From a virus (Duplodnaviria > Heunggongvirae > Uroviricota > Caudoviricetes): a DNA stretch of 64,000 nucleotides. A program made the position numbers and the translations under genes. Where the stretch lies: IMG/VR virus record IMGVR_UViG_3300049919_000280, positions 19,682 to 83,681 of that record, one strand, 5' to 3'. Below, in pieces: positions 1 through 33,297 of this stretch (the stretch's first letter is position 1; each line of letters begins with the position of its first letter). The notes beneath the pieces are model-generated. The model worked only from the letters and a program-made list of their open reading frames with translations, was not told the origin of the DNA and did no database searches.

Positions 1-35
1 CACACGGTCAATCCAATTTATTTAAGGAGAATGCA

Positions 36-161
36 ATGCAGCGAAATATTTACGCAAAAGAATTGCGCTCTCTTGGGCAGTTCAAGCAAAAGGTAGTGGA
101 TTCAAAGAAGGGTCGAGGTTCTTGGAAGCGGAAAGAGAAGCATCGAGTTTCCGAGGATTGA
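36..161 (+). CDS. small basic ORF (41 aa); may be the 3' end of a gene entering from upstream of the window
   Basis: AAGGAG sits 6 nt before the ATG at 36. The same frame stays open back to base 3, so the true start may be upstream. Confidence 0.25.
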   Translation: MQRNIYAKELRSLGQFKQKVVDSKKGRGSWKRKEKHRVSED

Positions 162-171
162 CAAAGATTTA

Positions 172-247
172 CTCTCAGTCGGTTAGCGGCTATACCACCT
201 CGTTTGGGGCGAGGATTTCGTGTGTTCGAGTCACACCTGAGAGACCA
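172..247 (+). tRNA. tRNA-Pro (anticodon UGG), CCA encoded
   Basis: Hand-folded cloverleaf: acceptor ctctcag/ctgagag; anticodon stem cctcg/cgagg with loop tttgggg; 5-nt variable loop; T arm gtgtg-ttcgagt-cacac; discriminator A then CCA. Confidence 0.7.
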
Positions 248-539
248 GAATTAAGATAGCGACGAGTATGGTCTAGAACAGAAACATCGCCGTAAATCGA
301 GGACTGGTAGGTTAGGCAACCTCGTTAAAAAGCCTACCCCAGATTTTAGAATGGAAGGATGTTGCAGATAAGTTAAAGTATTTGGAACAGTAAAAGAATT
401 CAAAGCAGTCGCATTCGGTTAATATCTGGATGGATGTGTGATGATAGGCAGATGTCAGTCTGCTCACGGTGCCGAAACTCATCGTGCTAGGGAGAAGTTG
501 GATACCGAAATCCGAAGCAAATGGGTTATACTTAACGAA

Positions 540-585
540 AGTGGTCTAATAAAACGGATACTTCCGTACCATATTAGTTGAGTAC
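540..585 (+). repeat. short member of the AAGTGGT ... CGGWTACTTC element family
   Basis: aagtggtctaataaaacggatacttccgtacc shares AAGTGGT and CGGATACTTC with the copies at 3012, 4473, 4634 and 4826. A local hairpin acgga/tccgt can form. Confidence 0.35.
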
Positions 586-780
586 CAAATGTTAAGATTG
601 GTCTAGTGGAATTGATCACCACGAAAACTGAGAGGATGCAGTGTATAAATGCCGACAAAGTTTCAAATATTTTTCGAGTAGGGCATTCTCGTCTAATGTC
701 AAAACGCTAAGACATCCGTAGGGTGTTGATCACGTTAGCGCAATCTGGGTACGATCTTAGACCAGAAAGAATTTGGTAGA

Positions 781-881
781 GTGTAAATTTGTGGAACGGC
801 GAAGTAGGAGAGTCGCGGCTGACTGTAAATCAGTTCCCTCTGGGTGAGTAAATTCGAATTTTACTTCCACAAATTTACACT
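781..881. repeat. 16-bp perfect inverted repeat (gtgtaaatttgtggaa / ttccacaaatttacac) enclosing 69 bp, just upstream of ORF 909
   Basis: Exact reverse-complement arms at 781-796 and 866-881. The enclosed segment contains the hairpin ctga-ctgtaaa-tcag. Confidence 0.55.
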
Positions 882-908
882 TTGGCCACTTCATAACTAG
901 GAGGCATT

Positions 909-1421
909 ATGTCCATGATGTTACGTTTAAACGAAGAATATGGGACAAGATTCCAGACGTTCCGAGAATTCTGCGAACTATCCGAATCGTTCAAACCAAA
1001 ACATACAGAATTCGGAACCGATGGTAAAAACGGAAAGTGGAACGAGAACGAATCCCATCACTGGACTTTCTTCTCTCATAAACCAGATCACCATGCATTC
1101 GTCCATTTGAGTAAGGAGTCTGGAGAATTTGGTTTCGGCACTCATCGTGGAGAATTTACCGACGATGTTGCAAATCACTACGATGAAGAACCAAAACATG
1201 TTGGCGAAGCATTGTCCGTGATGAATAAGGCGTTGCATGTCGCAGTGACGGGGGCAAAGGAGCATAGTCTAAAGCAGATTTTCATTCATGGTGCGAATAA
1301 CCACCTGAAACAAGTTTACGATAAGGCAATAGGAAACAAGTTTCTTCAGAAGCATATGGAAAGTCATGGATTCAAGTATTCGCATTCGTTTAAGGATCGG
1401 CATTACTTTTCTGCAGTATGA
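909..1421 (+). CDS. hypothetical protein (170 aa)
   Basis: Long ORF with the RBS aggagg 7 nt upstream. No family recognised. Confidence 0.7.
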   Translation: MSMMLRLNEEYGTRFQTFREFCELSESFKPKHTEFGTDGKNGKWNENESHHWTFFSHKPDHHAFVHLSKESGEFGFGTHRGEFTDDVANHYDEEPKHVGEALSVMNKALHVAVTGAKEHSLKQIFIHGANNHLKQVYDKAIGNKFLQKHMESHGFKYSHSFKDRHYFSAV

Positions 1422-1426
1422 TCAGT

Positions 1427-1509
1427 GCGGGAGTAGCCTAGAGGTCAGGCACCTGATTTCCAATCAGGCAGACGAGAGTCGCACGCAGGTTCAAATCCTG
1501 TCCCCCGCT
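1427..1509 (+). tRNA. type II tRNA (long variable arm); anticodon loop tttccaa gives UCC by position, so identity is unresolved
   Basis: Acceptor gcgggag/cccccgc with one A-C mismatch; 3-bp D stem gcc/ggc; anticodon stem cctga/tcagg; 16-nt variable arm with a gac-gaga-gtc hairpin; T arm gcagg-ttcaaat-cctgt. No CCA is encoded. Confidence 0.5.
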
Positions 1510-1548
1510 CACGAATTTCTCTTTTAAATCAACGAGTTACTGAAATTG

Positions 1549-1576
1549 TTGCATTCTCCTGTGATGTCTGTATAAT
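1549..1576 (+). promoter_or_regulatory. promoter TTGCAT-N16-TATAAT with upstream box AAATCAACGAGTTAC (1526-1540) and leader CATCGGAAC ... GGAG
   Basis: This is one member of a cassette repeated at least 10 times in the window; see findings. Confidence 0.5.
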
Positions 1577-1611
1577 TCATCACATCGGAACACAAACACA
1601 GGAGAAACATC

Positions 1612-1995
1612 GTGGCCTACGTCAACAAAGAAGTCATCGCAAAGTGTCGTGCTGGTGCAGCGGCAATTCGTAAACAGTATGGCATCAAGATGACGTTTTC
1701 AGTGAATCATGGATCGACTTTGGTTTGTAACATCGCCAGCGGTAATGTCGATTTCTTTGGTCAGATGACCGAGAAGAGTGCATCATATGCTGACGGAAAG
1801 TATTGCCAAGTGAATCATTACCACCTCGATTCCAGTTTCAAGGGAGAGGCTCTGGAATGTCTAGAAGCAATAAAGACTTTGATGCACGTCGATCATTGGG
1901 ATGAGTCCGATATCATGACCGATTATTTTTGCACATCATTTTACGTTAATATCCACGTGGGTAAATGGAACAAACCATACGTTTGTGTGGCATAA
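1612..1995 (+). CDS. hypothetical protein (127 aa), GTG start
   Basis: ORF directly follows the promoter/leader cassette (ggagaaacatcGTG). Confidence 0.55.
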   Translation: MAYVNKEVIAKCRAGAAAIRKQYGIKMTFSVNHGSTLVCNIASGNVDFFGQMTEKSASYADGKYCQVNHYHLDSSFKGEALECLEAIKTLMHVDHWDESDIMTDYFCTSFYVNIHVGKWNKPYVCVA

Positions 1996-2000
1996 GAATC

Positions 2001-2095
2001 AGTCCTGTAGTTTAATGGTAAAACTCCGAGCTTATACCTCGGCATTGCGGCTAGATTGGCTGATGATTTCGGTTCGAATCCGGACGGGACTACCA
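2001..2095 (+). tRNA. tRNA-like gene with a perfect anticodon arm (ccgag-cttatac-ctcgg, anticodon UAU, Ile-like) but about 25 extra nt between the anticodon and T arms; CCA encoded
   Basis: Acceptor agtcctg/cgggact; D arm gttt-aatggta-aaac; T arm ttcgg-ttcgaat-ccgga. At 95 nt it is too long for a normal tRNA. The next ORF starts 2 nt after the CCA. Confidence 0.4.
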
Positions 2096-2096
2096 A

Positions 2097-2366
2097 ATGA
2101 AAGTTGTTCATTGCAAGAAAGACCCTTTCGATATATACATCGGAAGACCAAGTAAATGGGGAAACCCATTTGAGATTGGGAAAGATGGTGATAGGAAAGC
2201 CGTTATATTGAAGTATGCGGCTTGGATACAAAAGCAACCAGACCTTCTTAGAGACATTTCAGAATTGAAGGGCAAGGTTCTTGGTTGTTGGTGCTATCCG
2301 AAAGCGTGTCATGGTGATGTTCTTTTGAGGTTGGCTAATGAATCCAGCTTATCTGATTTTATGTAA
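2097..2366 (+). CDS. DUF4326-like small protein (89 aa)
   Basis: The pattern GNPF ... GCWCYP ... CHGDVL resembles the DUF4326 family, which is often linked to ADP-ribose processing genes. Confidence 0.5.
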   Translation: MKVVHCKKDPFDIYIGRPSKWGNPFEIGKDGDRKAVILKYAAWIQKQPDLLRDISELKGKVLGCWCYPKACHGDVLLRLANESSLSDFM

Positions 2367-2381
2367 AGGGTTGGAGGTAAA

Positions 2382-2891
2382 ATGATATCAGTAAAAGAAA
2401 TATTCGCTAGGCGGCTTCAAGAGATGTTTGATTCTCCTTGGCCGACGACGGAAGATCAGGATGCGACTACTGCTGCCAATGATGACGTAAAGAACAGAAA
2501 ATTGCCGGTGTCTAGTGTTAAGGTATATGATCTTGGCGACGATAACGGTAAGATGATCACATACGTTCGCAACGGTGCATTGGAAGTGCATCATCAGGAC
2601 AATTCTGGGATATCTGGGGTTCTCCATCTAGGGAGAAATAAACCAAATCCAAGATTCGTTGGGACTATGATGCGACATCTTTTGAAGCACGGTCTAGAAA
2701 AGTCACATCCTGTTCGGATCATCGCGAAACAAAAGTTGTTCGTCCGGTATAAGTCTTTGATCGATAAACTGCTGAATCAGAAACTGTATCGGGTGGTTTA
2801 TTCGGAAGAAACTGTGGATGGTCAAGTTGTAGAAACTGCGACTATATATCCAAGGAATAAGATTTCGGAAGAGTATTTTCCGAAGTTTTGA
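2382..2891 (+). CDS. hypothetical protein (169 aa)
   Basis: Long ORF with RBS ggagg. Confidence 0.6.
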   Translation: MISVKEIFARRLQEMFDSPWPTTEDQDATTAANDDVKNRKLPVSSVKVYDLGDDNGKMITYVRNGALEVHHQDNSGISGVLHLGRNKPNPRFVGTMMRHLLKHGLEKSHPVRIIAKQKLFVRYKSLIDKLLNQKLYRVVYSEETVDGQVVETATIYPRNKISEEYFPKF

Positions 2892-2898
2892 AGTTTAT

Positions 2899-3007
2899 GG
2901 GGAGGTAATTCAGTTGGTAGAAGAGTGACAATCGGATAGTTATTGGGCAGGCGTCCTAGCTTGATTGTTGCGTTACGTCGGTGGTTCAAGTCCATCCCTC
3001 CCCACCA
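2899..3007 (+). ncRNA. tRNA-like RNA (109 nt) with acceptor, D and T arms plus CCA, but the anticodon arm is replaced by a 6-bp helix with a 29-nt loop
   Basis: Acceptor ggggagg/cctcccc followed by A-CCA; D loop agttggtag; T arm ggtgg-ttcaagt-ccatc; central helix acaatc/gattgt. No canonical anticodon stem-loop can be drawn. Confidence 0.4.
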
Positions 3008-3011
3008 ATAT

Positions 3012-3080
3012 TGACGTGGTGAAAAGAAATCGGTTACTTCATTTGGCGAAATCAATACCGAATTCTGAATGTTCCCGTCA
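3012..3080 (+). ncRNA. copy of the about 70-nt repeat-family element (gacgtggtg ... cggttacttc ... gaaa ... ataccg ... tgttccc)
   Basis: Near-colinear with the copies at 4634-4713 and 4826-4893. It lies immediately 3' of the tRNA-like gene. Confidence 0.4.
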
Positions 3081-3087
3081 TGAACTA

Positions 3088-3118
3088 CCGCGAAGCTAAA
3101 GACATCGCGGTTTTCTTG
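3088..3118 (+). terminator. rho-independent terminator (ccgcga-N11-tcgcgg followed by TTTTCTT)
   Basis: 6-bp GC-rich stem followed by a T tract. Confidence 0.6.
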
Positions 3119-3309
3119 CTTAAGGGACGATAAAGATGTGTCGTCGTGACATGAAGATTTGTCGCGACGATAATTAAGTAGAAACGGAGTCTATGACTCC
3201 ATCGGCGAACGTGGTAGCCGTTTCTGTGGCCGAAGTGATCACTGGGCAGCAGTAGCTAAGTCAAAATCAACTCTTCCAGATTATCGGACTAAATCTGACC
3301 AAATTCAAT

Positions 3310-3386
3310 GCATCCGTGGTCTAATTGTATAAGGCATCGCACTTCTAATGCGAACGATGGGAGTTAGAATCTCTCCGGGTGCACCA
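3310..3386 (+). tRNA. tRNA-Arg (anticodon UCU), CCA encoded
   Basis: Acceptor gcatccg/cgggtgc with a G-U pair; D arm gtct-aattgtata-aggc; anticodon stem tcgca/tgcga with loop cttctaa; T arm gggag-ttagaat-ctctc. Confidence 0.75.
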
Positions 3387-3420
3387 AAATACGTTGTAAA
3401 ATCAACGAGTTACAAATATC

Positions 3421-3449
3421 TTGCTTCTGCATTCACATGTCTGTATAAT
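3421..3449 (+). promoter_or_regulatory. promoter TTGCTT-N17-TATAAT with upstream AAAATCAACGAGTTAC box (3398-3413)
   Basis: Cassette member. Leader ttacatcgaaacaacaaacggagtaaacatcATG. Confidence 0.55.
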
Positions 3450-3483
3450 TCATTACATCGAAACAACAAACGGAGTAAACATC

Positions 3484-3834
3484 ATGAGCAAAAACATCGG
3501 ATACCACACTCGCCTGATCAGCAACAACGCAACAAAGGTTTGTGGCGGATCGTTTGGTGGCGAGGTTAGTGCTGATACGGTGGCCCGTTTGGTCAAGTCG
3601 CACTTTGATGTCGCAGTCAAGCCTTCTGGCGCTGTTGTTTTTGTTGATAAGAGTGGTCGCGAAGTTTCACTTTATCTCACAGTTGATCCGATGACTACTG
3701 ATATCGGCAAGGTTGCTAAGAAAGAATGGCTTGCTAAACGCAGTGCGGAACAAGACGAGTCTCGCGAAAAAATCGAGAGTCTTATGGCTGGACTTGATGA
3801 TGCTGAAATTATTCGTCGGTTGTCTGATTATTAA
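3484..3834 (+). CDS. hypothetical protein (116 aa)
   Basis: ATG follows the cassette leader. The track ORF 3348 overlaps tRNA-Arg, so the start was moved to 3484. Confidence 0.65.
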   Translation: MSKNIGYHTRLISNNATKVCGGSFGGEVSADTVARLVKSHFDVAVKPSGAVVFVDKSGREVSLYLTVDPMTTDIGKVAKKEWLAKRSAEQDESREKIESLMAGLDDAEIIRRLSDY

Positions 3835-3845
3835 GGAGATTTGCA

Positions 3846-4004
3846 ATGTGCTGCGAAGGATGGTATTACGATGACAAATGTGTCGATGGGGAGTGTCCAG
3901 ACTGCGGAGAACCCACTGTCGACGGCGAAGCCCAATCTGGTTGCCATTATTCGCCTTGCTCCTGCCAGACATGTAACTCTCGCCCGTGCGACGGAAGTTG
4001 TTGA
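3846..4004 (+). CDS. Cys-rich small protein (52 aa)
   Basis: AAGGAG RBS. The product has 11 Cys arranged in CxxC-like pairs. Confidence 0.45.
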   Translation: MCCEGWYYDDKCVDGECPDCGEPTVDGEAQSGCHYSPCSCQTCNSRPCDGSC

Positions 4005-4016
4005 CGGGAGTATAAA

Positions 4017-4142
4017 ATGAATATGCTAACATTAGAAGAAGCGTATGCCGAACATGTACATGTTCATAAAACCTTCGGAATCAAAGTGATGACCATCGAA
4101 CAATTCAGTGAATTTTGGAACCTCTTTCAGGAGACCAAATAA
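4017..4142 (+). CDS. small ORF (41 aa)
   Basis: Weak RBS gggag. Below the ORF-track cutoff. Confidence 0.3.
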   Translation: MNMLTLEEAYAEHVHVHKTFGIKVMTIEQFSEFWNLFQETK

Positions 4143-4437
4143 AGAAGTAGGTGCCAAGCTTATCATTCTGTTCCCTATGGATTGATGGCTTAAACAGGCG
4201 AAAAACACTCTTGATGTAGAGAGCCCATAGCTCAAGAGTGTCCTCATTTAAACTATGGGAGCGACTGTCGTCGTAGGTATGAGTTGCCAAAGACCATCAG
4301 AAAATGATTTAGGGATCATGAGTATGATGACAGAATAAATGGAGAGTTAACTGCTAAGGTAGCAGCGGGACTTGCTAAGTCTCTGGTCCCTGTAATATGG
4401 GATGGGAATCGTGATCTCAGCTCTCCTCCAATATTAC

Positions 4438-4466
4438 TTGACTTTGCAGAGCGATTAATGTAAAAT
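4438..4466 (+). promoter_or_regulatory. strong sigma70-type promoter TTGACT-N17-TAAAAT that fires into element E0
   Basis: Consensus-like hexamers with 17-bp spacing. The predicted start (about 4473) coincides with the conserved gaagtggt motif. Confidence 0.55.
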
Positions 4467-4472
4467 GTTTGA

Positions 4473-4590
4473 AGTGGTAAAGATTCAGCAGTAAAAGTTT
4501 TAATCCGTAGTGTAGGCATCAGTTACTTCAATGCTAATGACGAGGTGGTGGTTCGAATCCACCCAACACAAATCTGATTTGTGTTGAAGC
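4473..4590 (+). ncRNA. candidate small RNA E0: repeat-family motifs plus a perfect tRNA T-arm (ggtgg-ttcgaat-ccacc) and a 3' hairpin caacacaaat-ctg-atttgtgttg
   Basis: No ORF is present. It has its own promoter. It shares gaagtggt and cagttacttc..gctaatga with R1/R2. No acceptor or anticodon arms can be drawn, so it is not a real tRNA. Confidence 0.45.
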
Positions 4591-4633
4591 TCATGGATGA
4601 GCGCGAAAATCTCTGATGCCGTCTGTTCTCGGA

Positions 4634-4713
4634 AATGATTTATTTTAAAGTGGTGTGGATTGCGGTTACTTCCTTATAGACGAAACTTATACCGTGGTCG
4701 TTTGTTCCCTTTA
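4634..4713 (+). ncRNA. repeat-family element R1 (ttttaaagtggtgtgg ... cggttacttcc ... gaaac ... ataccgtggtcg tttgttcccttta)
   Basis: About 75% identical to R2 and to the 3012 copy. Substitutions keep the cggt/accg pairing (acgg/ccgt in R2). Confidence 0.4.
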
Positions 4714-4728
4714 ATTATGATGTATAAT

Positions 4729-4804
4729 TCCCTAGTAGCTCAGCTGGCAGAGCGTGGTGCTGTTAACACCGAGGTCACTCGTTCGAACCGAGTCTGGGGA
4801 GCCA
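4729..4804 (+). tRNA. tRNA-Asn (anticodon GUU), CCA encoded
   Basis: Acceptor tccctag/ctgggga; D arm gctc-agctggca-gagc; anticodon stem tggtg/caccg with loop ctgttaa; T arm actcg-ttcgaac-cgagt. Confidence 0.8.
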
Positions 4805-4825
4805 AAATTTGTAGTAGTTGTGAGT

Positions 4826-4893
4826 TTTAAAGTGGTGTAGACTAACGGTTACTTCTCGCTAATGAAACCATGCCGTAGTCATTTGTTCCCTTT
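4826..4893 (+). ncRNA. repeat-family element R2, directly upstream of the Ro60-like gene
   Basis: ttttaaagtggtgtagactaacggttacttctcgctaatgaaaccatgccgtagtcatttgttcccttta. It ends 15 nt before the ATG at 4909. Confidence 0.4.
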
Positions 4894-4908
4894 ACTTGGA
4901 GATTTAAA

Positions 4909-6342
4909 ATGTCGTCAATCAACAAAAAAGTTGAAGCAGAAAAGATTTACACTGATGGCGGAGCGATTGCTTCTCGCATCACTAAGATTCAAGAGCTTGA
5001 GCGAACTGTTATGTCCTGCATGCTGTGGGAAGATTCATACAGCGAAAGTGGCGTTAAAGTTGCAGATCGCATTAAGGAATTGGTGCATTCATGCAAGCCA
5101 GATGCTGTTGCAAAGATTGCTATTTCGGCACGTACCGATATGCATCTTCGTCACGTCCCGCTTTTCCTAGTTCGTGAGTTGGCTCGGCATGCTATGTCGC
5201 CTTCATATCCTAAACTCGTCGCGAATACTCTGACTGCAGTTATCCAGCGACCAGATGAAATTGCCGAATTCATGGCAATCTATCAGAAGGATGGAAAGCA
5301 GCCGCTGTCGAAGCAGGTTAAGATCGGTCTGGCTAATGCGTTCAAAAAATTCAACGAGTATAGCCTCGCAAAGTATTCTAGCGAAGGCAAGGAGTATTCG
5401 CTTCGTGATGTGTTGTTCCTAGTTCATGGCAAGCCTGCAGACGTTCCTGCTGATGCCACGAAGTATGATCGTGCTGCCCGTGTTATTGGTGTGAATCGCC
5501 AACTAACTGCAGGCGAGGCTCTGTATCGTCGTGTGTCAGAAAACGCTCTTGTGACCCCAGATACTTGGGAAGTCGAGTTGAGTTCTGGTGCGGATAAGGC
5601 GGAGACTTTTGTTCGCCTGATGGAAGAAGGCACTTTGGGTGCAATGGCGTTCCTGCGCAATCTTCGTGGTATGAAGGAAGCTAAAGTTCCGAAGATTAAT
5701 ATCAAGGAATATGCAGAAAAGGTAAAGGTTGACAAAATCCTACCGTTCCGATTTATCGCGTCTGCACGAGCGGTTCCTGAATGGGAAGATGTTATCGAGC
5801 CAATGATGCTGCGTTGCTTGGGTGGTCTGCCGAAGCTTTCTGGTAAGACTGTGTTCATTGTTGATATCTCTGGTTCCATGGGGCAACCTATTTCCAGCAA
5901 ATCAACTATGCGTCGTTATGATGCTGCGATGGCTCTTGTTATTCTGGCCAAGGAAATGTGCGAGGATGCTGTCATCTACGCAACTGCTGGTAGTGATGGA
6001 CAAGGCATTCATGCAACCGAAGTAATCCCTAATCGGAAAGGGTTTGCCATTGCCGATGCTCTTCGCAGCATGAACGCCAAGTTGGGTTTCGGTGGTATTT
6101 TCTTGAAGCAGACTTTGGATTACGTTCATGAAAGGGAATTGACTGCGGATCGAGTGATTGTATTCACCGATGAAATCGACTGCGATCATAAATGCAACCC
6201 TGCAGATGCGAAGGCGTTTGGTGGCAGCAATTACATCGTTAACATCGCTTCTCAGCGTAATGGAATTGCATACAACAAATTCACTCATATCGATGGGTGG
6301 AGTGAGCAGGTAATGGCTTTCATCCAAAAGTTGGAAGCATAA
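4909..6342 (+). CDS. rsr: Ro60/Rsr-like RNA-binding protein (helical N-terminal region plus C-terminal vWA domain with MIDAS motif DISGSMG)
   Basis: 477 aa. The vWA motif VFIVDISGSM ... TDEID sits at residues about 305-420 behind a roughly 300-aa helical N-terminal region, which is the TROVE+vWA layout. The gene is embedded among tRNA and tRNA-like RNAs, as in known rsr/Y-RNA loci. TROVE assignment is from memory, not from a search. Confidence 0.5.
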   Translation: MSSINKKVEAEKIYTDGGAIASRITKIQELERTVMSCMLWEDSYSESGVKVADRIKELVHSCKPDAVAKIAISARTDMHLRHVPLFLVRELARHAMSPSYPKLVANTLTAVIQRPDEIAEFMAIYQKDGKQPLSKQVKIGLANAFKKFNEYSLAKYSSEGKEYSLRDVLFLVHGKPADVPADATKYDRAARVIGVNRQLTAGEALYRRVSENALVTPDTWEVELSSGADKAETFVRLMEEGTLGAMAFLRNLRGMKEAKVPKINIKEYAEKVKVDKILPFRFIASARAVPEWEDVIEPMMLRCLGGLPKLSGKTVFIVDISGSMGQPISSKSTMRRYDAAMALVILAKEMCEDAVIYATAGSDGQGIHATEVIPNRKGFAIADALRSMNAKLGFGGIFLKQTLDYVHERELTADRVIVFTDEIDCDHKCNPADAKAFGGSNYIVNIASQRNGIAYNKFTHIDGWSEQVMAFIQKLEA

Positions 6343-6349
6343 AGGTTTA

Positions 6350-6421
6350 GCCGGTTTAGCTCAGTGGTAGAGCAACCGCCTTGTAAGCGGTAGGTCGTCT
6401 GTTCAATCCAGACAGCCGGCA
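6350..6421 (+). tRNA. tRNA-Thr (anticodon UGU)
   Basis: Acceptor gccggtt/agccggc; D arm gctc-agtggta-gagc; anticodon stem accgc/gcggt with loop cttgtaa; T arm gtctg-ttcaatc-cagac. No CCA is encoded. Confidence 0.8.
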
Positions 6422-6552
6422 TATAAATTTAGCACCATCTGTCTAATACCCATCAGCATATGGGAACTTAAACCACCACACATCTTGCGCAAGATTAACC
6501 GTGGATTGCTACAACTCAAATTGACAATGAGTTGGATGGTGCTAAATTTATG
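6422..6552. repeat. 17-bp perfect inverted repeat (ataaatttagcaccatc / gatggtgctaaatttat) enclosing 95 bp that include the 14-bp palindrome atcttgcgcaagat
   Basis: Arms at 6422-6439 and 6534-6552. Internal hairpin cccat-cagcat-atggg. Confidence 0.5.
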
Positions 6553-6581
6553 TTGATTTTAATATGTAAACGCGGTATAAT
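6553..6581 (+). promoter_or_regulatory. sigma70-type promoter TTGATT-N17-TATAAT for the helicase gene
   Basis: Consensus spacing. The track's ATG at 6582 lies inside this promoter, so the CDS start was moved to 6609. Confidence 0.6.
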
Positions 6582-6608
6582 ATGCGTTCATCTTCTTATA
6601 GGATTATT

Positions 6609-7901
6609 ATGGCTGATTACGCAAAACTAGCAACCAAGATGCTTGGGTTCCCTCTAAACGAAGACCAGAACGCTGCAATAAGCGAGATCGTAGAATGGGC
6701 AAACCAACCTCTTGCGGTCTCACCGTACAAAACACTGGGTGGGTATGCTGGAACTGGAAAGTCAACAATCGTAAAGGTTATCGTTAGCCTAGTTTCTAGT
6801 AACACTGCACTGTGCGCACCAACAAACAAAGCGGTTAAGGTTCTTAAGTCTCTAGGGACTGGACGAACATGCATGACCATTTATTCTCTTCTTGGTCTTC
6901 GTATGTCACAGCATGAGGATAAGCTAAAGCTCGAAAAGGCGTTGAAGGATAAGGTCGGCAGTTATAATCTAATCATCATCGATGAGGCTGGAATGATTGG
7001 CGAAGAACTTCTTGACTATATCGAGACAGCAACAAAGATGTATGGCGTTAAAGTTCTTTTCGTTGGTGACCCCGGCCAGTTGAATCCTATTGGAGAAGAC
7101 CTCTCTGAGATTTGGGGGCGTTATCCAATGATCATCCTTCGCAAGGTTGAGCGTCATGACAATCAGATTCTGGATTTTGCTACTCATATTCGCTCAACAA
7201 AAATTACTGCTCTTCGTTATGAAAATAATAACGATGGTATCGAGGGGGTATGGGATTTGGATATGACAAAATTCAAGGGTACCATCAAGGACTATGCAGC
7301 GGCTGGTTCTTTCCACGGAACAAAAAGTCGTGTTCTAGCATGGAGAAATAAAACTGTTGATGAATATAATGAATTCATTCGGCATTGCATCCATGGGGTT
7401 AGGGCTAAGAAAGAAGAATGGATTGAGGGGGATCGTGTAGTATTCACCGCACCGTTTGGCGATGATATCATTACAGACGACGAAGGCTATGTTAGGTCAA
7501 TGTCGGTTGGGTTCAGTCGAGATTATCCAAGATTCAAGTGCATCCATCTTGAAGTAATGTTGAACGACGAATATCCAATCATCGTACCAATTATTCATCC
7601 TGACTCAGATGATGATTATGTTGACGAACTCAGTCTAATATCCATGCAGGCTAGGAAATATAAAGAGGCAAAGGATTTTAAGGCTTCTGGTGCAAAGTGG
7701 AAAGAATACTGGACTCTCGTTGATTCCTTCGTGAAGATAAAGCATGGTTACGCACTTACCGCACATCGGGCACAAGGATCGACTTATGAGAACGTTTTCG
7801 TTGATGTTAGTGACATTCTAACGAACAGCAATCGCAAAGAAGCTAAGCGGTGTTTATATGTTACTGCAACCAGACCTACAACTAGGTTGTTCCTGACATG
7901 A
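6609..7901 (+). CDS. dda: Dda-like SF1B DNA helicase (430 aa)
   Basis: Walker A GYAGTGKST; C-terminal motif ALTAHRAQGSTYENVFVD typical of the RecD/Dda family. Size matches T4 Dda (439 aa). Confidence 0.7.
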   Translation: MADYAKLATKMLGFPLNEDQNAAISEIVEWANQPLAVSPYKTLGGYAGTGKSTIVKVIVSLVSSNTALCAPTNKAVKVLKSLGTGRTCMTIYSLLGLRMSQHEDKLKLEKALKDKVGSYNLIIIDEAGMIGEELLDYIETATKMYGVKVLFVGDPGQLNPIGEDLSEIWGRYPMIILRKVERHDNQILDFATHIRSTKITALRYENNNDGIEGVWDLDMTKFKGTIKDYAAAGSFHGTKSRVLAWRNKTVDEYNEFIRHCIHGVRAKKEEWIEGDRVVFTAPFGDDIITDDEGYVRSMSVGFSRDYPRFKCIHLEVMLNDEYPIIVPIIHPDSDDDYVDELSLISMQARKYKEAKDFKASGAKWKEYWTLVDSFVKIKHGYALTAHRAQGSTYENVFVDVSDILTNSNRKEAKRCLYVTATRPTTRLFLT

Positions 7902-26429: not shown

Positions 26430-27104
26430 ATGACAAGTAAAAAGATTTGGTTTTGTGCAGATTTACATCTGGGGCATCGTAACATCATGAAGTTTTCCCC
26501 AGATAGAATCGATATTCTCGGGTTAGATAAGTTCTACTCGAAGGAGTTGATAGCTCGTGCCTTTCAGGCGACGACCCTTAAACAAGATAGCCAAGCAGAG
26601 ATTGCGGAAGCACAGAATATATTGAGTCGCGCTCGGGATAAGATGGACGAACTGATCATCAAACAGTGGAACGAGACCATTGGATTTTCTGATGACGTGT
26701 ATATCCTTGGTGATGTATCATTCTGGAAAGCGGATAAAACTGAACGGTTGTTGAATCAGATGCATGGTCGGTTGCACCTAATCCGGGGTAACCATGATCA
26801 TGGCACGGACATGCTGGATCGCTGGGAATTGGTTAAGGATTATGCTGAAATTAAGTTCGATGGCATTCCGACTATCATGTTTCATTTCCCTATCCAGGAA
26901 TTTTGTATGCAACATCGAGGGGCAATTCATATTCATGGGCATACCCATAACAACCTACCAAAGCATCTGGGGAAGGTGTTAGATGTCGGAATGGAATCTC
27001 TCGGTAAGATCGCAATAGAATGGGCAGAATTAAAGGATTATATGGCAACCCGCCCGATTACACCACATGGCGATTCGGACGAAAATCAAACTCACGGATA
27101 TTGA
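26430..27104 (+). CDS. calcineurin-like metallophosphoesterase (224 aa)
   Basis: DLHLGH ... GNHD ... HGHTH metal-ligand motifs. Confidence 0.65.
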   Translation: MTSKKIWFCADLHLGHRNIMKFSPDRIDILGLDKFYSKELIARAFQATTLKQDSQAEIAEAQNILSRARDKMDELIIKQWNETIGFSDDVYILGDVSFWKADKTERLLNQMHGRLHLIRGNHDHGTDMLDRWELVKDYAEIKFDGIPTIMFHFPIQEFCMQHRGAIHIHGHTHNNLPKHLGKVLDVGMESLGKIAIEWAELKDYMATRPITPHGDSDENQTHGY

Positions 27105-27119
27105 ATAAAGGAAACCAAA

Positions 27120-27422
27120 ATGACGAAGAAAATTGAAGTTGAATTCACCCCGGAACAAGCCGCAACTATCTATAGCCTTCTTTATAGTCTCGGCGGCAGC
27201 ACCGATATATCGGCCAGAGGATTTGCAGATGAGGTTCGATTGAAGTTAGAGGGAGAATTTACGGAAACTCAGCGGATCGCATTGGAACGGCTAACAATTC
27301 TAAACGCACATAAGTATTTTGCTGATGGCACCAAAGGTGCAATCAGAGGTATCATGTTCGAGCCGAAATCTGAAATTATGGTGGATGGATATTATTATGT
27401 TCTCGCCCCAAATCAGTTCTGA
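27120..27422 (+). CDS. hypothetical protein (100 aa)
   Basis: ORF. Confidence 0.55.
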   Translation: MTKKIEVEFTPEQAATIYSLLYSLGGSTDISARGFADEVRLKLEGEFTETQRIALERLTILNAHKYFADGTKGAIRGIMFEPKSEIMVDGYYYVLAPNQF

Positions 27423-27575
27423 ATCATTGATCGAACGTCTGCAGAAGAGGGCGGCAATTCGCAGGCAAATTTCAACAAGGAAGTCGGTGCAGGAGGGTAA
27501 GCCTGATCGCATCGCCGACCTTCTCGAAGAGGCTGCAGCGGCACTGATTAAATGTAATTACACTGAGGAGTTAAA

Positions 27576-28010
27576 ATGATTAAGTACATGGATTGGCCGC
27601 CGCCAGAGTTGGTTGGATTGTTTAAAACGAAATACGACTTTTACCTAGGTGGAAGTCGTCGTATGGCAAAGAAATTCTACGAAGAAGTTCATGTAAATTC
27701 TGCCACAGATTACGACCTGTATGCGACCAGCAGCCAAGATGCAGAAGATATTCTAGCAATGGCAGGATTCACTCGCAGTTTGATAGATGATTTGTATCTG
27801 GACGACCAAGCAGTTTCAATTTGGAAGAAGGGTGACGTTCAAGTGGTATTGCGAAAAAATGCCGAATTCTATGAAAAAGTATTCGAGAGCATTTCTGCGG
27901 AATATTATGTTAATCACCTATGGAAAAGCTCACAAGTTTTTGAATCCCATCCTGAACGGCGAGCATTAATCGGCGAACACTTCAACCAAATGTTTAGGAG
28001 TGCGGCATGA
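27576..28010 (+). CDS. putative minimal nucleotidyltransferase (144 aa)
   Basis: LGGSRRM ... SATDYDLY resembles the GS ... DxD nucleotidyltransferase signature. Weak. Confidence 0.35.
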   Translation: MIKYMDWPPPELVGLFKTKYDFYLGGSRRMAKKFYEEVHVNSATDYDLYATSSQDAEDILAMAGFTRSLIDDLYLDDQAVSIWKKGDVQVVLRKNAEFYEKVFESISAEYYVNHLWKSSQVFESHPERRALIGEHFNQMFRSAA

Positions 28011-28366
28011 TCATTTTTAGGGTGGATAAATCTGCTGTGAAAAAGGCGGCGAAGTTTCTTCTAAAGAAGAATCCGTCCATACTAACTTGGCCGGATTTTA
28101 GATACAATCAAAACGTGTCAGTCGAATCTGTTTATGATGTTATCATGAAGTGTGTTATTAACGGTGCGACTATGCGCACTCGGTATCTTAAGAATGACGG
28201 CACCTCAGATGAGTGGTCTGGTTGGCAATCTACCGGTGGATATACGATCATTTACACTGCAGAATTTTACGACTCAACTGGAGATTGGGTTATGGAAGCT
28301 GAGGTGACCGTTGATCCTGCGGTCATGGTAAGGAATCGTAAGTATCACGAAGAGCGACTTGTTTAG
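28007..28366 (+). CDS. hypothetical protein (119 aa)
   Basis: ORF. Confidence 0.55.
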   Translation: MIIFRVDKSAVKKAAKFLLKKNPSILTWPDFRYNQNVSVESVYDVIMKCVINGATMRTRYLKNDGTSDEWSGWQSTGGYTIIYTAEFYDSTGDWVMEAEVTVDPAVMVRNRKYHEERLV

Positions 28367-28375
28367 GAGACAACT

Positions 28376-28657
28376 GTGAAGAAAAAGAAATTATTTGATG
28401 TATTCGGTAAAGAAGTAAAATTACCTAAATGTAAAGTATATCTTTCGCGCAGGAATCTTGAGGCGTTGATATCTAAGCTTGATCGTGTTGCTGCAGGAGA
28501 GTCGTCGGAGTGTGCCATCATAAAGCGAGATAACGCACATCCAGAATATGCTCAGTCGATGAAGGAGATTATGGTGGTTGCAGTCGAGAACGAAAAATAC
28601 TACGTGGATCGTCCTGCTGGGCTGATGATGCCTGCTGATGTGAAGACCATATCGTGA
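28376..28657 (+). CDS. hypothetical protein (93 aa), GTG start
   Basis: ORF. Confidence 0.5.
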   Translation: MKKKKLFDVFGKEVKLPKCKVYLSRRNLEALISKLDRVAAGESSECAIIKRDNAHPEYAQSMKEIMVVAVENEKYYVDRPAGLMMPADVKTIS

Positions 28658-29301
28658 ATACCGACTTCAAAAAGCGAGTCGTATTTGTTGATATCGACGG
28701 CCCGATGGTTTCGGATCGCACTATCCGATTCGACCCAAAGAATAAGTCGAACCATCCAACTGTTCAGGACTTCATTGCGAAGCATTGTGACGAAGGAGAC
28801 TTTGCCGCTCGTGTAATCACATACATCCACTTCGACACAGTTGCCGTTGGTATGATGAATGAGTTATATGATCAATATCCGTATGAAATGGTGTTGTCGA
28901 GTTCGTGGTTCCATATCATCAACGAGAAGCAAACTCGTGCCCTATTTGAATACAATGGAATTAAAGCTCCATGGCATAAACGATGGAACACCCCTCGCAG
29001 ATTCAATTCCACAAGGGGAGAGGAAATTTCTTGGTGGCTGAAAGAAAATTCGTCGTATGACTACATCGTATTGGACGATCCTAGTAGTTTTCCAGATTCG
29101 TCTGATCCTAATGTTCTTCGCCAATTTGATATCGATCCAGACTATTGCATTATTGTCGATCCTTTCATTGGTCTTGAATATCACCACTTTGACCAGATGA
29201 AGAACATTTTTGCAGGGGAATCAATAGCCGCGAGGCACGGTAAGATGGTGGCAAAGGTGGTAAACGAGCAGATTTACCAAAAAACCCTTACAGATCAGTG
29301 A
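28654..29301 (+). CDS. HAD-like phosphatase (215 aa), GTG start
   Basis: The N-terminal VVFVDIDGPMVSD (DxDG) resembles the phosphatase domain of T4 Pnkp and 5'-nucleotidases. Confidence 0.45.
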   Translation: MNTDFKKRVVFVDIDGPMVSDRTIRFDPKNKSNHPTVQDFIAKHCDEGDFAARVITYIHFDTVAVGMMNELYDQYPYEMVLSSSWFHIINEKQTRALFEYNGIKAPWHKRWNTPRRFNSTRGEEISWWLKENSSYDYIVLDDPSSFPDSSDPNVLRQFDIDPDYCIIVDPFIGLEYHHFDQMKNIFAGESIAARHGKMVAKVVNEQIYQKTLTDQ

Positions 29302-29379
29302 GTTGCAAAGTGTTGTGTTTTGGTTTCGATGCGTGTATAATTCATTACATCGAAACCAACAACGCAAAGTGAGATTAAA

Positions 29380-29631
29380 ATGTTATCAACCAACCAGTTC
29401 AGATTCGATAAGGCTTCTAGAAATTTGGTCGCTTCGGTTAATACGTTTAATGAGAGTTATCTTGGTGGGTTTCCGGTGACCATGGAAATTCATTCGCCGA
29501 AGACCGGTAATGTTTGCCGGTTCTTCATCGATGCCGCCGCTGCTGAGCGCAATGAGTATTGGGATGGTGAAGAAATGCAGTATATTTCTGCGGAAACTGA
29601 TGTCCGCGTTATTTTACATTGTGGAGAGTAA
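29380..29631 (+). CDS. hypothetical protein (83 aa)
   Basis: Cassette leader. Confidence 0.55.
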   Translation: MLSTNQFRFDKASRNLVASVNTFNESYLGGFPVTMEIHSPKTGNVCRFFIDAAAAERNEYWDGEEMQYISAETDVRVILHCGE

Positions 29632-29633
29632 AG

Positions 29634-30677
29634 ATGAGTCGTGAAAACAATCAAATGAGCTACATCGCGGAAATCACCCATCTGGTGCCGATCCGCGATG
29701 CTGATGCCATCGAAAAAGCAGTCATCAACGCGGGGTGGCCTGTTGTGGTTAAGAAGGGCGAATTCAACGTTGGCGATTTGGTAATATACATGGAAATCGA
29801 CAGCTGGTGCCCGACTGAGTTGGCACCGTTCCTATCAAAGGGAAACGAACCTCGCGAATACAATGGGGTAAAGGGAGAGCGTCTGCGTGGTATTAAATTG
29901 CGCGGACAGCGCAGCCAAGGTCTCGTCCTACCACTCCAAAAGAAAATGGGCGGTTGGCTGTTGCCTATGCCTTACGATCAAACGCTAGTCGAAAAAGGCC
30001 AATTGATCGGCGATGTTCTTGGAATTCAGAAGTGGGAAGCCCCAGAAGGATTCTCGTCTGGTAATGCTAAGGGCAATTTCCCATCTGTTGTGCCGAAGAC
30101 TGATGCAGAACGCATCCAGAACCTTCGCCATGAACTGCAAGACTGGATCGAGCGGGGTCTTACCTTTGAAGTCACTGAAAAGCTACATGGTACTTCGTTC
30201 ACTGCTCTTGTCGTAGATGGTGAATTCGGTGTATGTTCGCGGAATCTACTTCTCCAAGAAGGAGAAGGTACATATTGGTCTGTAGCTGAAAAGCATGGCC
30301 TCAAGGAAAAGATGCTTGCCATGGGTCGAAACTTCGCGGTGCAAGGCGAAATCATTGGGCCGGGAATCCTCGGAAACCAGTATGGATTGCCTGAATCCGA
30401 AGTGTTCGTGTTCAATGTGTTTGACATTGACAAAAAAGGATACGTCACTCCGGAAGAACGGCATAGCATTATCGAAGAACTTGAATTGAAGCATGTACCT
30501 ATCATCTGCAAATGGCATAGTATGAGCGAACATACTATCGATTCATTACTTGAACTTGCAGAAGGAAAGAGTGTGCTCAACAGCAGCGAACGTGAGGGAT
30601 TGGTATTCAAGTGTATCGAAGACCCTAGCATTCAGTTCAAGAGTGTGAGTAATCGCTGGTTGGATAAGGAAAAGTGA
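29634..30677 (+). CDS. ATP-dependent RNA ligase, Rnl2/Rnl5-like, with N-terminal extension (347 aa)
   Basis: Motif I EKLHGTSF (KxHG as in T4 Rnl2 KIHGTN), then FAVQGEIIG, EGLVFK and a KxK tail. The nucleotidyltransferase module is C-terminal behind a roughly 170-aa N-domain, as in DraRnl-type ligases. Confidence 0.6.
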   Translation: MSRENNQMSYIAEITHLVPIRDADAIEKAVINAGWPVVVKKGEFNVGDLVIYMEIDSWCPTELAPFLSKGNEPREYNGVKGERLRGIKLRGQRSQGLVLPLQKKMGGWLLPMPYDQTLVEKGQLIGDVLGIQKWEAPEGFSSGNAKGNFPSVVPKTDAERIQNLRHELQDWIERGLTFEVTEKLHGTSFTALVVDGEFGVCSRNLLLQEGEGTYWSVAEKHGLKEKMLAMGRNFAVQGEIIGPGILGNQYGLPESEVFVFNVFDIDKKGYVTPEERHSIIEELELKHVPIICKWHSMSEHTIDSLLELAEGKSVLNSSEREGLVFKCIEDPSIQFKSVSNRWLDKEK

Positions 30678-30680
30678 AAA

Positions 30681-30851
30681 ATGATTGAAAAATTAAAGAA
30701 ACACCCACTCAATGTTAAACTTTCGTATGCGTTTTTAATATTGTTGGATTTTGGTTTGGTTATTACGTTCCCAATCGCAGGAGGTATGATAAATTGTGCG
30801 ATTGGTATTTTGGTGGCTGTTATAACGTTGGCCGATTATCATACGAGGTAA
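30681..30851 (+). CDS. small membrane protein (56 aa)
   Basis: Hydrophobic. Confidence 0.4.
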   Translation: MIEKLKKHPLNVKLSYAFLILLDFGLVITFPIAGGMINCAIGILVAVITLADYHTR

Positions 30852-30855
30852 TTAA

Positions 30856-31062
30856 ATGGGACTATCGATTGGAATTTCCACAATGGGTGATGAAGTTGGC
30901 ACTAAACAAATCGATGCCGTAGAATTGAGCCTAGGCAACCATTCATTTAAATGCAGTAGCGGTGTTGCTCGCTTCCATGCAAAACAATTACTGCTTGCCG
31001 CTGATTTTGTGGATGGAATTTTTGAATCGGACGATATTAAGGAATCAGTAGATAAGGAATAA
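30856..31062 (+). CDS. hypothetical protein (68 aa)
   Basis: ORF. Confidence 0.45.
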   Translation: MGLSIGISTMGDEVGTKQIDAVELSLGNHSFKCSSGVARFHAKQLLLAADFVDGIFESDDIKESVDKE

Positions 31063-31065
31063 AAT

Positions 31066-31245
31066 ATGAAAGTTTGGATTTTAATGGCGGTGGTATACAA
31101 TGGCCATTTTGTCTGGCCCATTGTTCCAACTATTGAATTTTCAACTCAACAGAAATGCGAGCAGGCGAGAATAAAAATTACCGAAGAAATTCAGAAATTT
31201 CCGAGAGGAAAGTTTGAAGGTTATTGTTTGGAGATCGAAAAATGA
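31066..31245 (+). CDS. small membrane protein (59 aa)
   Basis: Hydrophobic N-terminus. Confidence 0.4.
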   Translation: MKVWILMAVVYNGHFVWPIVPTIEFSTQQKCEQARIKITEEIQKFPRGKFEGYCLEIEK

Positions 31246-31424
31246 TTTATGAGGGCAAGCAATATGCGCTAGTTCAGATTAAAAACAAAACGCCGCAGTC
31301 GTGGTACGAGGTATGCAGAAGTTGTGCTTTTGATAAAAAAATACGCGGGTGCAGTATAGCTGAGTGCGCACCTTATTCAGATATTGATACCTTTTTTGTT
31401 GAGATAGGAGTAGTAAATGTTTAA
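31242..31424 (+). CDS. Cys-containing small protein (60 aa)
   Basis: ATGA overlap. Confidence 0.45.
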   Translation: MIYEGKQYALVQIKNKTPQSWYEVCRSCAFDKKIRGCSIAECAPYSDIDTFFVEIGVVNV

Positions 31425-31593
31425 AATGATTTTAGTCTTTGTATTAGTATCGATTATAATTGCTGGTGGAATCCAGATTTTTCGTAATATGTCTGGTAAG
31501 GAAAAGTGGACATTGACGAAAATTGTAGGTTATGCGATAATGTGTTCTGGTATTGCAATTAGTATTCTCTCCGCTATTGTTGTTCTCTTTTAA
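31417..31593 (+). CDS. small membrane protein (58 aa)
   Basis: Two hydrophobic helices. Confidence 0.45.
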   Translation: MFKMILVFVLVSIIIAGGIQIFRNMSGKEKWTLTKIVGYAIMCSGIAISILSAIVVLF

Positions 31594-31609
31594 TTAAAGG
31601 AAATTTAAA

Positions 31610-32407: not shown

Positions 32408-32552
32408 GTTTTCTTCTTTTAGCTTCTTTAAGAACTACAAATATCGAACCTGATCAATCGGTGTGAAGAAGCACTTGAAAACATCGAAGAAGGGGACGAG
32501 CAGTCTGGAAGACGGATTCTTGCTGAAATCATTAAAGAAGGGCGGAAATAAA

Positions 32553-32957
32553 ATGGATGCTAATCAATTTGCATGGGCTTACCTAGTTATGAACGGTCAT
32601 GCCAACAAACGCTCGTCGTACTATGGTGGAATGGAGCCTGTTGACCATAAAGCTCCGGGTAAGGTCGCCGTACATTGGACGGACTCGTGGAACGATGCCT
32701 TCATCAAACAGATTAAGACAATCGGAGTTAATTGGAAAAAGACTAATGCACCAGCTTCGGACAGCGTTTCGATTTTCCTCGGCACGTTCTGCAAAGAGCA
32801 AGGGCATAAAGAAGTCATTGAGGGCACGCTGGTGCTGAAGAACGGTACTAAGCAGGTATGGGAAGCAGAGGCTCTTGAAGTGTCTAACATCTTTGCTGTG
32901 ATGGCAGACACCACGGAATTGCAGAAATTTTACGCAGAAGTATTTGGAGCAGAGTGA
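32553..32957 (+). CDS. hypothetical protein (134 aa)
   Basis: RBS ggcggaaataaaATG. The longer track start has no RBS. Confidence 0.5.
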   Translation: MDANQFAWAYLVMNGHANKRSSYYGGMEPVDHKAPGKVAVHWTDSWNDAFIKQIKTIGVNWKKTNAPASDSVSIFLGTFCKEQGHKEVIEGTLVLKNGTKQVWEAEALEVSNIFAVMADTTELQKFYAEVFGAE

Positions 32958-33292: not shown

Positions 33293-33297
33293 TAATC

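Follow-up and report, generated by a model that had tools for sequence, protein, structure and literature searches.

Putative Y RNAs beside a phage Ro60 gene and their relatives in viral and bacterial Ro60 loci

The Ro60 locus and its RNA elements

The window is a stretch of 64,000 nucleotides (nt). It represents positions 19,682 to 83,681 of the IMG/VR record IMGVR_UViG_3300049919_000280, a virus of the Caudoviricetes. A phage transfer RNA (tRNA) cluster occupies window positions 1-6500, in which seven tRNAs were recognised by ARAGORN and an additional tRNA of 106 nt (2899-3004) by Rfam. The cluster also contains four copies of a repeated element, three short and one long (Table 1). These elements are very probably phage Y RNAs, the non-coding partners of the Ro60 protein that the next gene encodes. 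Conservation of both partners extends from bacteria to humans, and human Ro60 is an autoantigen in lupus and Sjögren's syndrome.

The open reading frame (ORF) downstream of the elements encodes a Ro60 orthologue with an intact DxSxS motif (VDISGSM) of the metal ion-dependent adhesion site. Over its full length it matches the Ro60 of Thermus phage phiLo (9KOP/9L5Y; E 3e-21), its closest solved relative. Homologues with 35-56% identity were found on 49 viral and 31 bacterial contigs. The protein is the presumed partner of the window Y RNAs. A preliminary description of the repeats, made from the letters and their ORFs, had named Y-like RNAs as the last of its alternatives and had overlooked this gene; the identity of the ORF, which begins 15 nt after the last copy, decided for the Y RNA reading. 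All copies are situated 14-1829 nt upstream of the Ro60 ORF on the same strand. A covariance model (R1), built from the 17-sequence short-form alignment presented below, yielded no strong match in the rest of the 64-kb window beyond these four copies, so that the family is confined to the 2 kb 5' of position 4909.

The short copies comprise about 68 nt each and show a mean column identity of 77%, close to the value of about 75% given before. Their common fold starts with a terminal helix (P1), in which a U is bulged two pairs below the top. An asymmetric internal loop separates P1 from a second helix (P2) of about 9 base pairs (bp), which carries an apical loop with UUACUUC at its start and GAAA inside. 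Copy 1 begins 7 nt after the 106-nt tRNA. Its P1 pairs UGACG-(bulged U3017)-GG with CC-CGUCA; beyond the internal loop, P2 comprises about 9 bp and is capped by UUACUUC...GGCGAAA as the apical loop. Copy 2 forms P1 from UUAAAG-(U)-GG and CC-CUUUAA and P2 from GAUUGCGGU and ACCGUGGUC, with UUACUUC...GACGAAA in the loop. In copy 3, P1 consists of UAAAG-(U)-GG and CC-CUUUA and P2 of GACUA(A)CGG and CCGUAGUC; its end lies just 5' of a GGAG ribosome-binding site. Both helices of copy 1 differ from those of the other copies by compensatory changes. In P1, GACG/CGUC is exchanged for AAAG/CUUU, and the lower half of P2 is wholly different with the pairing kept. The replacement of cggt/accg by acgg/ccgt, already described as a potential helix, is real and belongs to the 9-bp helix. 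The block pattern AGTGGT..RKWTACTTC occurs three times against 0.03 occurrences expected, and GTTACTTC seven times against 1.5 expected, four of the seven being located within copies. The only ORFs overlapping the copies are short and spurious, in agreement with the earlier statement that no credible ORF is affected.

The long copy carries an insert of 80 nt in the apical loop. P1 is formed by 4504-4510 and 4628-4633 (UCCG-U-AG/CU-CGGA) with U4508 bulged, AG:CU being a compensated replacement of GG:CC. P2 pairs 4515-4522 with 4613-4620 (GGCAUCAG/CUGAUGCC). The 5' box CCGUAGUG is located at 4505-4512 and the 3' box at 4621-4633; the UUACUUC box is present. UUAC (4523-4526) is followed by a variable (V) region (4527-4546), folded into a V stem in the minimum free energy (MFE) structure, and by a T-arm (4547-4563; GGUGG UUCGAAU CCACC). 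A closed acceptor-like hairpin of 10 bp (4564-4586) stacks directly on the T stem. After AA, a D-arm (4589-4602) with GG within the loop leads via GCGAAAAUCU (4603-4612) back into P2. The unconstrained MFE structure of 4501-4636 has exactly this layout of V region, T-arm, closed hairpin, AA and D-arm, with a z score of -3.36 and none of 200 shuffled sequences folding as well. The apical loop holds a circularly permuted tRNA-like module composed of V, T-arm, closed acceptor-like stem and D-arm. The T- and D-arm motifs were found in the sequence as well. The Rfam tRNA model gave 23.4 bits on 4506-4571, below its threshold of 29 bits, and ARAGORN made no tRNA call on the long copy.

The preliminary description had recognised this copy and its T-arm insertion correctly and had assigned it to 4473-4590. 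The span has to be shifted, and the 3' half with the hairpin, the D-arm and the 3' box had been missed. AAGTGGT at 4473 had served as the 5' box; it was rejected in favour of 4505-4512 on the basis of the R1 placement and the MFE fold of the span. In the putative leader of the long copy, UUGAAGUGG at 4469-4478 is complementary to the conserved UUACUUCAA box (4523-4531). In the MFE structure of 4468-4600, positions 4469-4477 are paired with the UUACUUCAA box. This pairing may be an alternative in competition with the Y RNA fold, or else due to chance.

Table 1. Features of the Ro60 locus, given in window positions
Feature	Position	Strand	Evidence
Short Y RNA copy 1 (putative)	3012-3080	+	R1 64.8 bits, E 9e-17; MFE fold reproduces P1/P2
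Promoter-like site TTGACT-17-TAAAAT	4438-4466	+	10/12 consensus matches; consensus match only
Long YrlA-like Y RNA (putative)	4501-4636	+	R1 37.5 bits, E 1e-8
Short Y RNA copy 2 (putative)	4645-4714	+	R1 65.5 bits, E 6e-17; fold
tRNA-Asn(GUU)	4729-4804	+	ARAGORN; Rfam tRNA 55.6 bits; between short copies 2 and 3
Short Y RNA copy 3 (putative)	4828-4894	+	R1 60.6 bits, E 1.5e-15; fold; sequence
Ro60 orthologue, 477 amino acids	4909-6342	+	TROVE ring domain and vWA domain; Pfam TROVE 2.7e-13, vWA_Ro60 1.6e-6

A fifth copy, described before as a short form at 540-585, is not supported as a member of the family. Neither the lower closing stem nor the 3' box is present, R1 gave no match on it with filters off, and its fold is no better than that of shuffled sequences (z -1.05). 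The resemblance is limited to a 27-nt 5' half with 78% identity to copy 3 (4829-4855). Positions 540-596, between tRNA-Pro and tRNA-Tyr, can form a hairpin (UGGU/ACCA, CUAAUA/UAUUAG, ACGGA-UACU-UCCGU) like the 5' half of the family. The site may be what is left of a Y RNA copy after decay, or the partial resemblance may be due to chance.

Conservation and covariation in related loci

Homologous elements were collected from the 49 viral contigs, which had been fetched with the Ro60 protein as anchor. A three-sequence MAFFT alignment of the window copies had mis-registered P2 and was replaced by a descriptor search and the 17-sequence alignment. The descriptor required GTGGT...GTTCC closed by at least 4 bp. 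Matches with completely different stem sequences are present 5' of Ro60 in many of the contigs. P2 lies outside the descriptor, and its covariation is free of ascertainment bias because the descriptor does not require it. For the 17 short forms, RNAalifold recovered P1 and P2, with pairing kept through double changes in 12 of 16 pairs. Paired cells amounted to 94.1%, compared with 39-52% after sliding the partners. The covariation score was 0.81 against at most 0.17 in the controls, a value reached by none of 500 shuffles.

R1 detected 116 copies in 44 of the 49 viral loci, all on the Ro60 strand. The large majority (110) are located upstream of Ro60 at a median distance of 257 nt, and six just downstream. 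A locus typically harbors two to four copies, with a maximum of nine, some of them 1-5 kb from Ro60. Five loci remained without an R1 match, two of which have no upstream sequence. The larger alignment has double changes in each of the 16 pairs, with 92.9% of the cells paired. Bacterial genomes with a Ro60 of the same clade, from Planctomycetota, Hyphomonadaceae/Caulobacteraceae and Bryobacterales, contributed 48 further copies, all upstream of Ro60 and on its strand. Together, the related viral and bacterial loci contain 164 R1 copies, and all 164 are on the Ro60 strand. Copies that had escaped annotation were also found in cultured phages, namely four in Xanthomonas phage Usaquen, four to six in Caulobacter phage CcrPW and two in Brevundimonas phage Kabachok. 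The selection on RNA structure rather than on DNA that the preliminary description had suspected is strongly supported by the covariation in the window and across more than 160 homologues. A common fold and copies in related phages are both present.

The most conserved positions of the family are unpaired. The bulged U is conserved to 98%, G12 (after GG-Y) to 99%, UACUUC to 80-100% and the UU before CC to 90-93%. The positions equivalent to the YUAY motif of YrlA RNAs are U in 100%, A in 80% and C in 100% of the sequences. The conserved bulged helix can be written as G-U-GG-(U/C)G-N-A-G/G-N-U-U-G-U-U-CC-C. Variable helices that frame invariant single-stranded bases give the family the look of a protein-recognised RNA.

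Long forms account for 41 of the 116 viral homologues, about half of them with a recognisable T-arm. An alignment of 18 full long forms revealed five helices: P1, P2, a T stem of 5 bp, an acceptor-like stem of 7 bp and a D stem of 4 bp. Double changes with pairing kept occurred in 25 of 30 pairs, and 94.3% of the cells are paired, compared with 41-51% after sliding. The long forms possess the sequence prerequisites of tRNA-type modification (pseudouridine 55, dihydrouridine) and of the RNase P/CCA processing known from some YrlA RNAs, i.e. the T-loop UUCGAAU, GG in the D-loop and an acceptor-like stem of mostly 7 bp. In several of them, the V stem-loop is a perfect mimic of an anticodon arm with 5 bp and a 7-nt loop (e.g. 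UUCGA-CUGUUAA-UCGAG), followed by AGGUC and the T-arm. The combination of anticodon-arm mimic and T-arm makes the module a complete tRNA permuted at the junction of D-arm and anticodon arm.

tRNA genes are not a regular companion of the element. Of the 44 loci with R1 copies, 23 lack a tRNA within about 6 kb; the occurrence of the element follows that of Ro60. The members are structured, modular RNAs, among them one of YrlA type. Both helices covary, the unpaired bases are invariant, and the copies keep to the Ro60 strand and, with few exceptions, to a few hundred nt 5' of Ro60.

Several observations were made on individual loci. The largest array comprises nine R1 copies over about 4 kb 5' of Ro60, interleaved with tRNAs (locus L010, 1053-5104). 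ARAGORN called tRNA-Ser(GCU) and tRNA-Asn(GUU) inside long-form Y RNAs of locus L001 (1997-2068) and of Usaquen (L051, 2785-2855). Some phage "tRNA" annotations near TROVE genes may therefore be Y RNAs. At the Bacteroides phage crAss001, whose TROVE protein is 37.5% identical, R1 gave no match. An unannotated gap of 900 nt 3' of the crAss001 TROVE gene (L050, 4383-5289), with no R1-type RNA nearby, contains a 144-nt match of the Rfam tRNA model (4657-4800, 46.6 bits). The GenBank features do not include this match, which may represent an insert-bearing tRNA or another type of Y RNA. In three relatives (L054, 6791-7046; L013, 4383-4794; L016, 4690-5083), a phage transfer-messenger RNA is encoded no more than a few kb away from the Ro60/Y RNA locus; one of these RNAs is permuted (Rfam RF04321, 57 bits). 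Their location suggests a clustering of genes for RNA and translation quality control.

Relation to known Y RNAs and alternative explanations

Y RNAs of bacteria and phages are encoded not more than about 2 kb from Ro60 on the same strand, usually with two or more per genome. One Y RNA per species is tRNA-like (YrlA), the others are simpler hairpins; 22 phages with Y RNAs have been reported (PMC4201824). In the operational definition of Chen et al. (2014), a Y RNA is characterised by this position and strand, a stem of both ends with an internal loop, a conserved Ro60-binding sequence and association with Ro60. The window copies lie within about 2 kb of the Ro60/TROVE gene and on its strand, and the covariation of P1 and P2 supports a stem of the 5' and 3' ends with an internal loop.

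YrlA (RF02553) is present in Salmonella, Mycobacterium and more than 250 bacteria and phages. In Salmonella YrlA, an anticodon-like stem continues from the Ro-binding stem, and the modules follow in the order anticodon-like stem, V, T-arm, acceptor stem and D-arm with a conserved YUAY (10.1101/312249; PMC4201824). The long copy of the window agrees in the position just upstream of Ro60, the strand and the layout of outer stem, asymmetric internal loop, second stem, YUAY (here UUAC), V, T-arm, closed acceptor-like stem and D-arm, the permuted arms extending over 4547-4602. It also has the T-loop UUCGAAU and a D-loop containing GG. In contrast to YrlA of Salmonella and Mycobacterium smegmatis, of which only the 5' strand of the outer module is recognisable (PMC4201824), the module is conserved on both strands here, with bulged U and GG:CC. 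The 5' motif is GG(U/C)G(A/U)AG instead of GNCGAAN0-1G. Many family members differ further in the V stem-loop that copies a 5-bp/7-nt anticodon arm and is followed by AGGUC.

YrlB/Yrn2-type RNAs are additional, simpler hairpins beside the tRNA-like one, co-transcribed with it and with pyrimidine-rich apical loops (PMC4201824). The three short copies fit this role as known from Salmonella, M. smegmatis and Deinococcus radiodurans. Published YrlB RNAs are unconserved beyond close relatives, whereas the short forms are conserved in many phages and several bacterial phyla. They resemble the long form without its module of V, T-arm, acceptor-like stem and D-arm, sharing the same P1, P2, UACUUC and GAAA. 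Metazoan and Deinococcus Y RNAs (RF00019; Yrn1) have in common with the family a terminal helix of the 5' and 3' ends with a single bulged pyrimidine in the 5' strand, about 2 bp, an internal loop, and the conservation of both strands of the presumed Ro60 site. Here the bulge is U instead of C, the RNAs are of smaller size, and the context of an RNA polymerase III/La-type oligo-U tail is absent. The 5' UGGUCCGAAGGUA and 3' GCUUGAC of hY1 resemble GUGGUGAAGGUA and GCUUGUUCC of the family; this is a lead rather than a test.

Some results weigh against an assignment to the Y RNAs. The Rfam model Y_RNA (RF00019) gave no match in window 1-7000 or 4440-4700 at E values up to 10, and YrlA (RF02553) none on the window copies at the same limit. 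The family motif GG(U/C)G(A/U)AG matches the published motifs GGUCCGA (animals) and GNCGAAN0-1G (YrlA/YrlB) only approximately. With about 68 nt, the short forms are below the 80-130 nt quoted for characterised Y RNAs. Finally, R1 gave no match in the phiLo region upstream of Ro60, the site of Yrl1 and Yrl2; phiLo being the only relative with biochemical work, no experimental anchor transfers directly. At the position of the Ro motif, the window copies read GGUGAAAAG, GGUGUGG, GGUGUAG and AGUGUAG. In the RF02553 consensus, GNCGAAN0-1G straddles the outer stem and the 5' side of the internal loop; the family motif occupies the same junction with the register off by 2-3 nt. The gathering threshold of RF02553 is 69 bits. 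The R1 long forms of Usaquen and CcrPW coincide exactly with sub-threshold RF02553 matches of 25.8-39.6 bits. Other upstream RNAs in Usaquen, CcrPW, TM30 and Kabachok scored 27-50 bits and a Gordonia phage control 44 bits, likewise below the threshold. The 50-bit match in Usaquen (L051, 2322-2417) was missed by R1.

In the phage phiLo, Ro60 binds adjacent RNAs and host polynucleotide phosphorylase (PNPase) (PMC12135203). The pairing of a phage Ro60 with adjacent small RNAs is shared with the window; Yrl1 and Yrl2 differ in that they were chosen by their CGAA motif 5' of the gene (PMC12135203; 9KOP, 9L5Y). Two weak R1 candidates of 15.3 and 10.9 bits occur on the Ro60 strand of the phiLo locus (L089; MH673673.1, reverse complement of 27012-33355) at 3941-4006 and 4128-4210. 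They show a GGGUACUUC loop and a good P2, are situated downstream of the Ro60 gene and overlap the hypothetical coding sequence phiLo_25. The model system may contain unrecognised partners of the family type.

The proximal copy often abuts the Ro60 start, with 14 nt between them in the window and 10-30 nt at about one third of the loci, and a Ro60-binding structure in its own leader would be a natural feedback loop. These observations, together with the interleaving of the window copies with tRNAs and the lack of terminators, would suit cis-acting elements of the Ro60/tRNA transcript, either processing punctuation with entry sites for RNase E, III or P or an autoregulatory leader of Ro60. As an explanation of the family, a cis-acting function is nevertheless improbable. 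Loci with two to four and up to nine copies, the copies at 1-5 kb and the six downstream of Ro60 are at odds with it, and a processing site needs no elaborate tRNA-like module. The 23 loci without a tRNA to process also argue against the tRNA-precursor processing signals considered in the preliminary description. A cis role is compatible with the Y RNA reading; the proximal copy could do both.

The stable RNAs species 1 and 2 of T4 (rnaC/rnaD), for which the preliminary description had proposed equivalents, occupy a similar niche as small non-coding RNAs between the genes of a phage tRNA cluster. An equivalence independent of Ro60 is very improbable. With filters off, R1 on T4 68000-76000, i.e. 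rnaC/rnaD and the surrounding 8 kb, reached 6.9 bits at best (E 1.3), with nothing on the encoding strand at these genes. No similarity of sequence or structure was seen, and across the loci the element follows Ro60 and not the tRNAs. To our knowledge, T4 has no Ro60 gene. DNA-level repeats with an incidental fold, such as operator sites, recombination or homing targets or a miniature mobile element, would account for dispersed copies with conserved sequence blocks and are effectively refuted by the covariation of the diverging helices, by G-U pairs meaningful only in RNA and by the absolute strand bias, the conserved blocks themselves being the unpaired bases.

As Y RNAs, the elements belong to a known kind, the Y RNAs beside phage Ro60 genes. 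They represent a divergent subfamily, which is widespread in phages, has no Rfam model of its own and is unannotated in cultured phages. New at the family level are the conservation of both strands of the presumed docking site, the likeness of the short forms to long forms devoid of the tRNA module, and the arrays of several genes.

In the proposed mechanism, the RNAs would be cut from a precursor that they share with the Ro60 mRNA and the tRNAs interleaved with them. As the presumed docking site, Ro60 would use the terminal helix, with its bulged U and GG:CC, and the conserved asymmetric internal loop (5' YGNAG, 3' GNUUGUU), comparable to the bulged helix of animal and Deinococcus Y RNAs. Following established Ro60 biology, the apical part, UACUUC...GAAA alone or together with the tRNA-like module, would tether Ro60 to an effector, with host PNPase or tRNA-recognising enzymes as candidates. 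In infected cells, the complex would then target structured RNA for degradation or quality control. PNPase tethering has been shown for Deinococcus, Salmonella and the Thermus phage phiLo (PMC4201824, PMC12135203). In the E. coli phage Bas63, the Ro60-like protein gp130, encoded beside a tRNA cluster, counters the ppl defence system (PMC11482910). This case hints at a role in the conflict of host and phage and proves nothing for the window.

The apical modules observed range from none over a simple hairpin or a T-arm alone to a complete permuted tRNA including the anticodon-arm mimic. A speculative and rather unlikely extension regards the docking scaffold (P1, bulged U, internal loop, P2 and UACUUC) as a chassis for interchangeable apical modules. 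Arrays of two to nine genes would then be a phage toolkit that directs Ro60 to several effectors or targets, possibly in counter-defence, to which Bas63 gp130 and its action on ppl point. The tRNA-like forms might either divert host enzymes that act on tRNAs, as decoys, or recruit them.

For the window, a puzzling repeat would resolve into an ordinary gene set, a Ro60 operon with four Y RNAs in a tRNA cluster. The family also accounts for gaps in the annotation and for some erroneous tRNA calls beside the TROVE genes of phages. It has more than 160 examples, strong covariation support and members in cultured phages with growable hosts, of which Caulobacter is also genetically manipulable, and provides concrete RNAs for testing.

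Gene arrangement and neighbouring features

The promoter-like site is followed by the long Y RNA, a short Y RNA, tRNA-Asn, another short Y RNA, ro60 and tRNA-Thr. This arrangement suggests a single precursor, in parallel to the YrlA/YrlB precursor of M. smegmatis, and the interleaving of tRNA-Asn with copies 2 and 3 likewise suggests a shared precursor transcript. The promoter-like site could, as a weak candidate, be the start of a transcript with the Y RNAs, tRNA-Asn and Ro60. Promoter-like sites are not more numerous in the region than expected by chance, and the scan for promoters and terminators gave nothing beyond chance; it found no terminator-like sites on the + strand of 2900-6500.

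In a megablast search of window 2800-7000 against GenBank phages, the tRNA segments alone matched; hence there is no close cultured relative. The helicase adjoining the locus has at most 39% identity to any protein of a cultured phage. The exact Ro60 protein of the window was found on one 3.3-kb Logan contig only.

Three tRNAs of the cluster have an unusual length for class I isoacceptors. tRNA-Gly(UCC) at 1427-1510 and tRNA-Ile(UAU) at 2001-2095 contain insertions of 13 and 22 nt in the variable region, and the 106-nt tRNA directly 5' of copy 1 (Rfam 38.8 bits) was missed by ARAGORN. Window 4333-4430, called neither by ARAGORN nor by Rfam, is tRNA-like, with an acceptor pairing GGAGAGU...GCUCUCC, a UCCA end, a long variable arm and what may be a GCU anticodon loop. 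At 1564-1592 and 3437-3465, 5' of two small ORFs, a 29-nt block (ATGTCTGTATAATTCAT...) recurs with 93% identity. The block resembles a phage promoter with an extended -10 element, here present twice.

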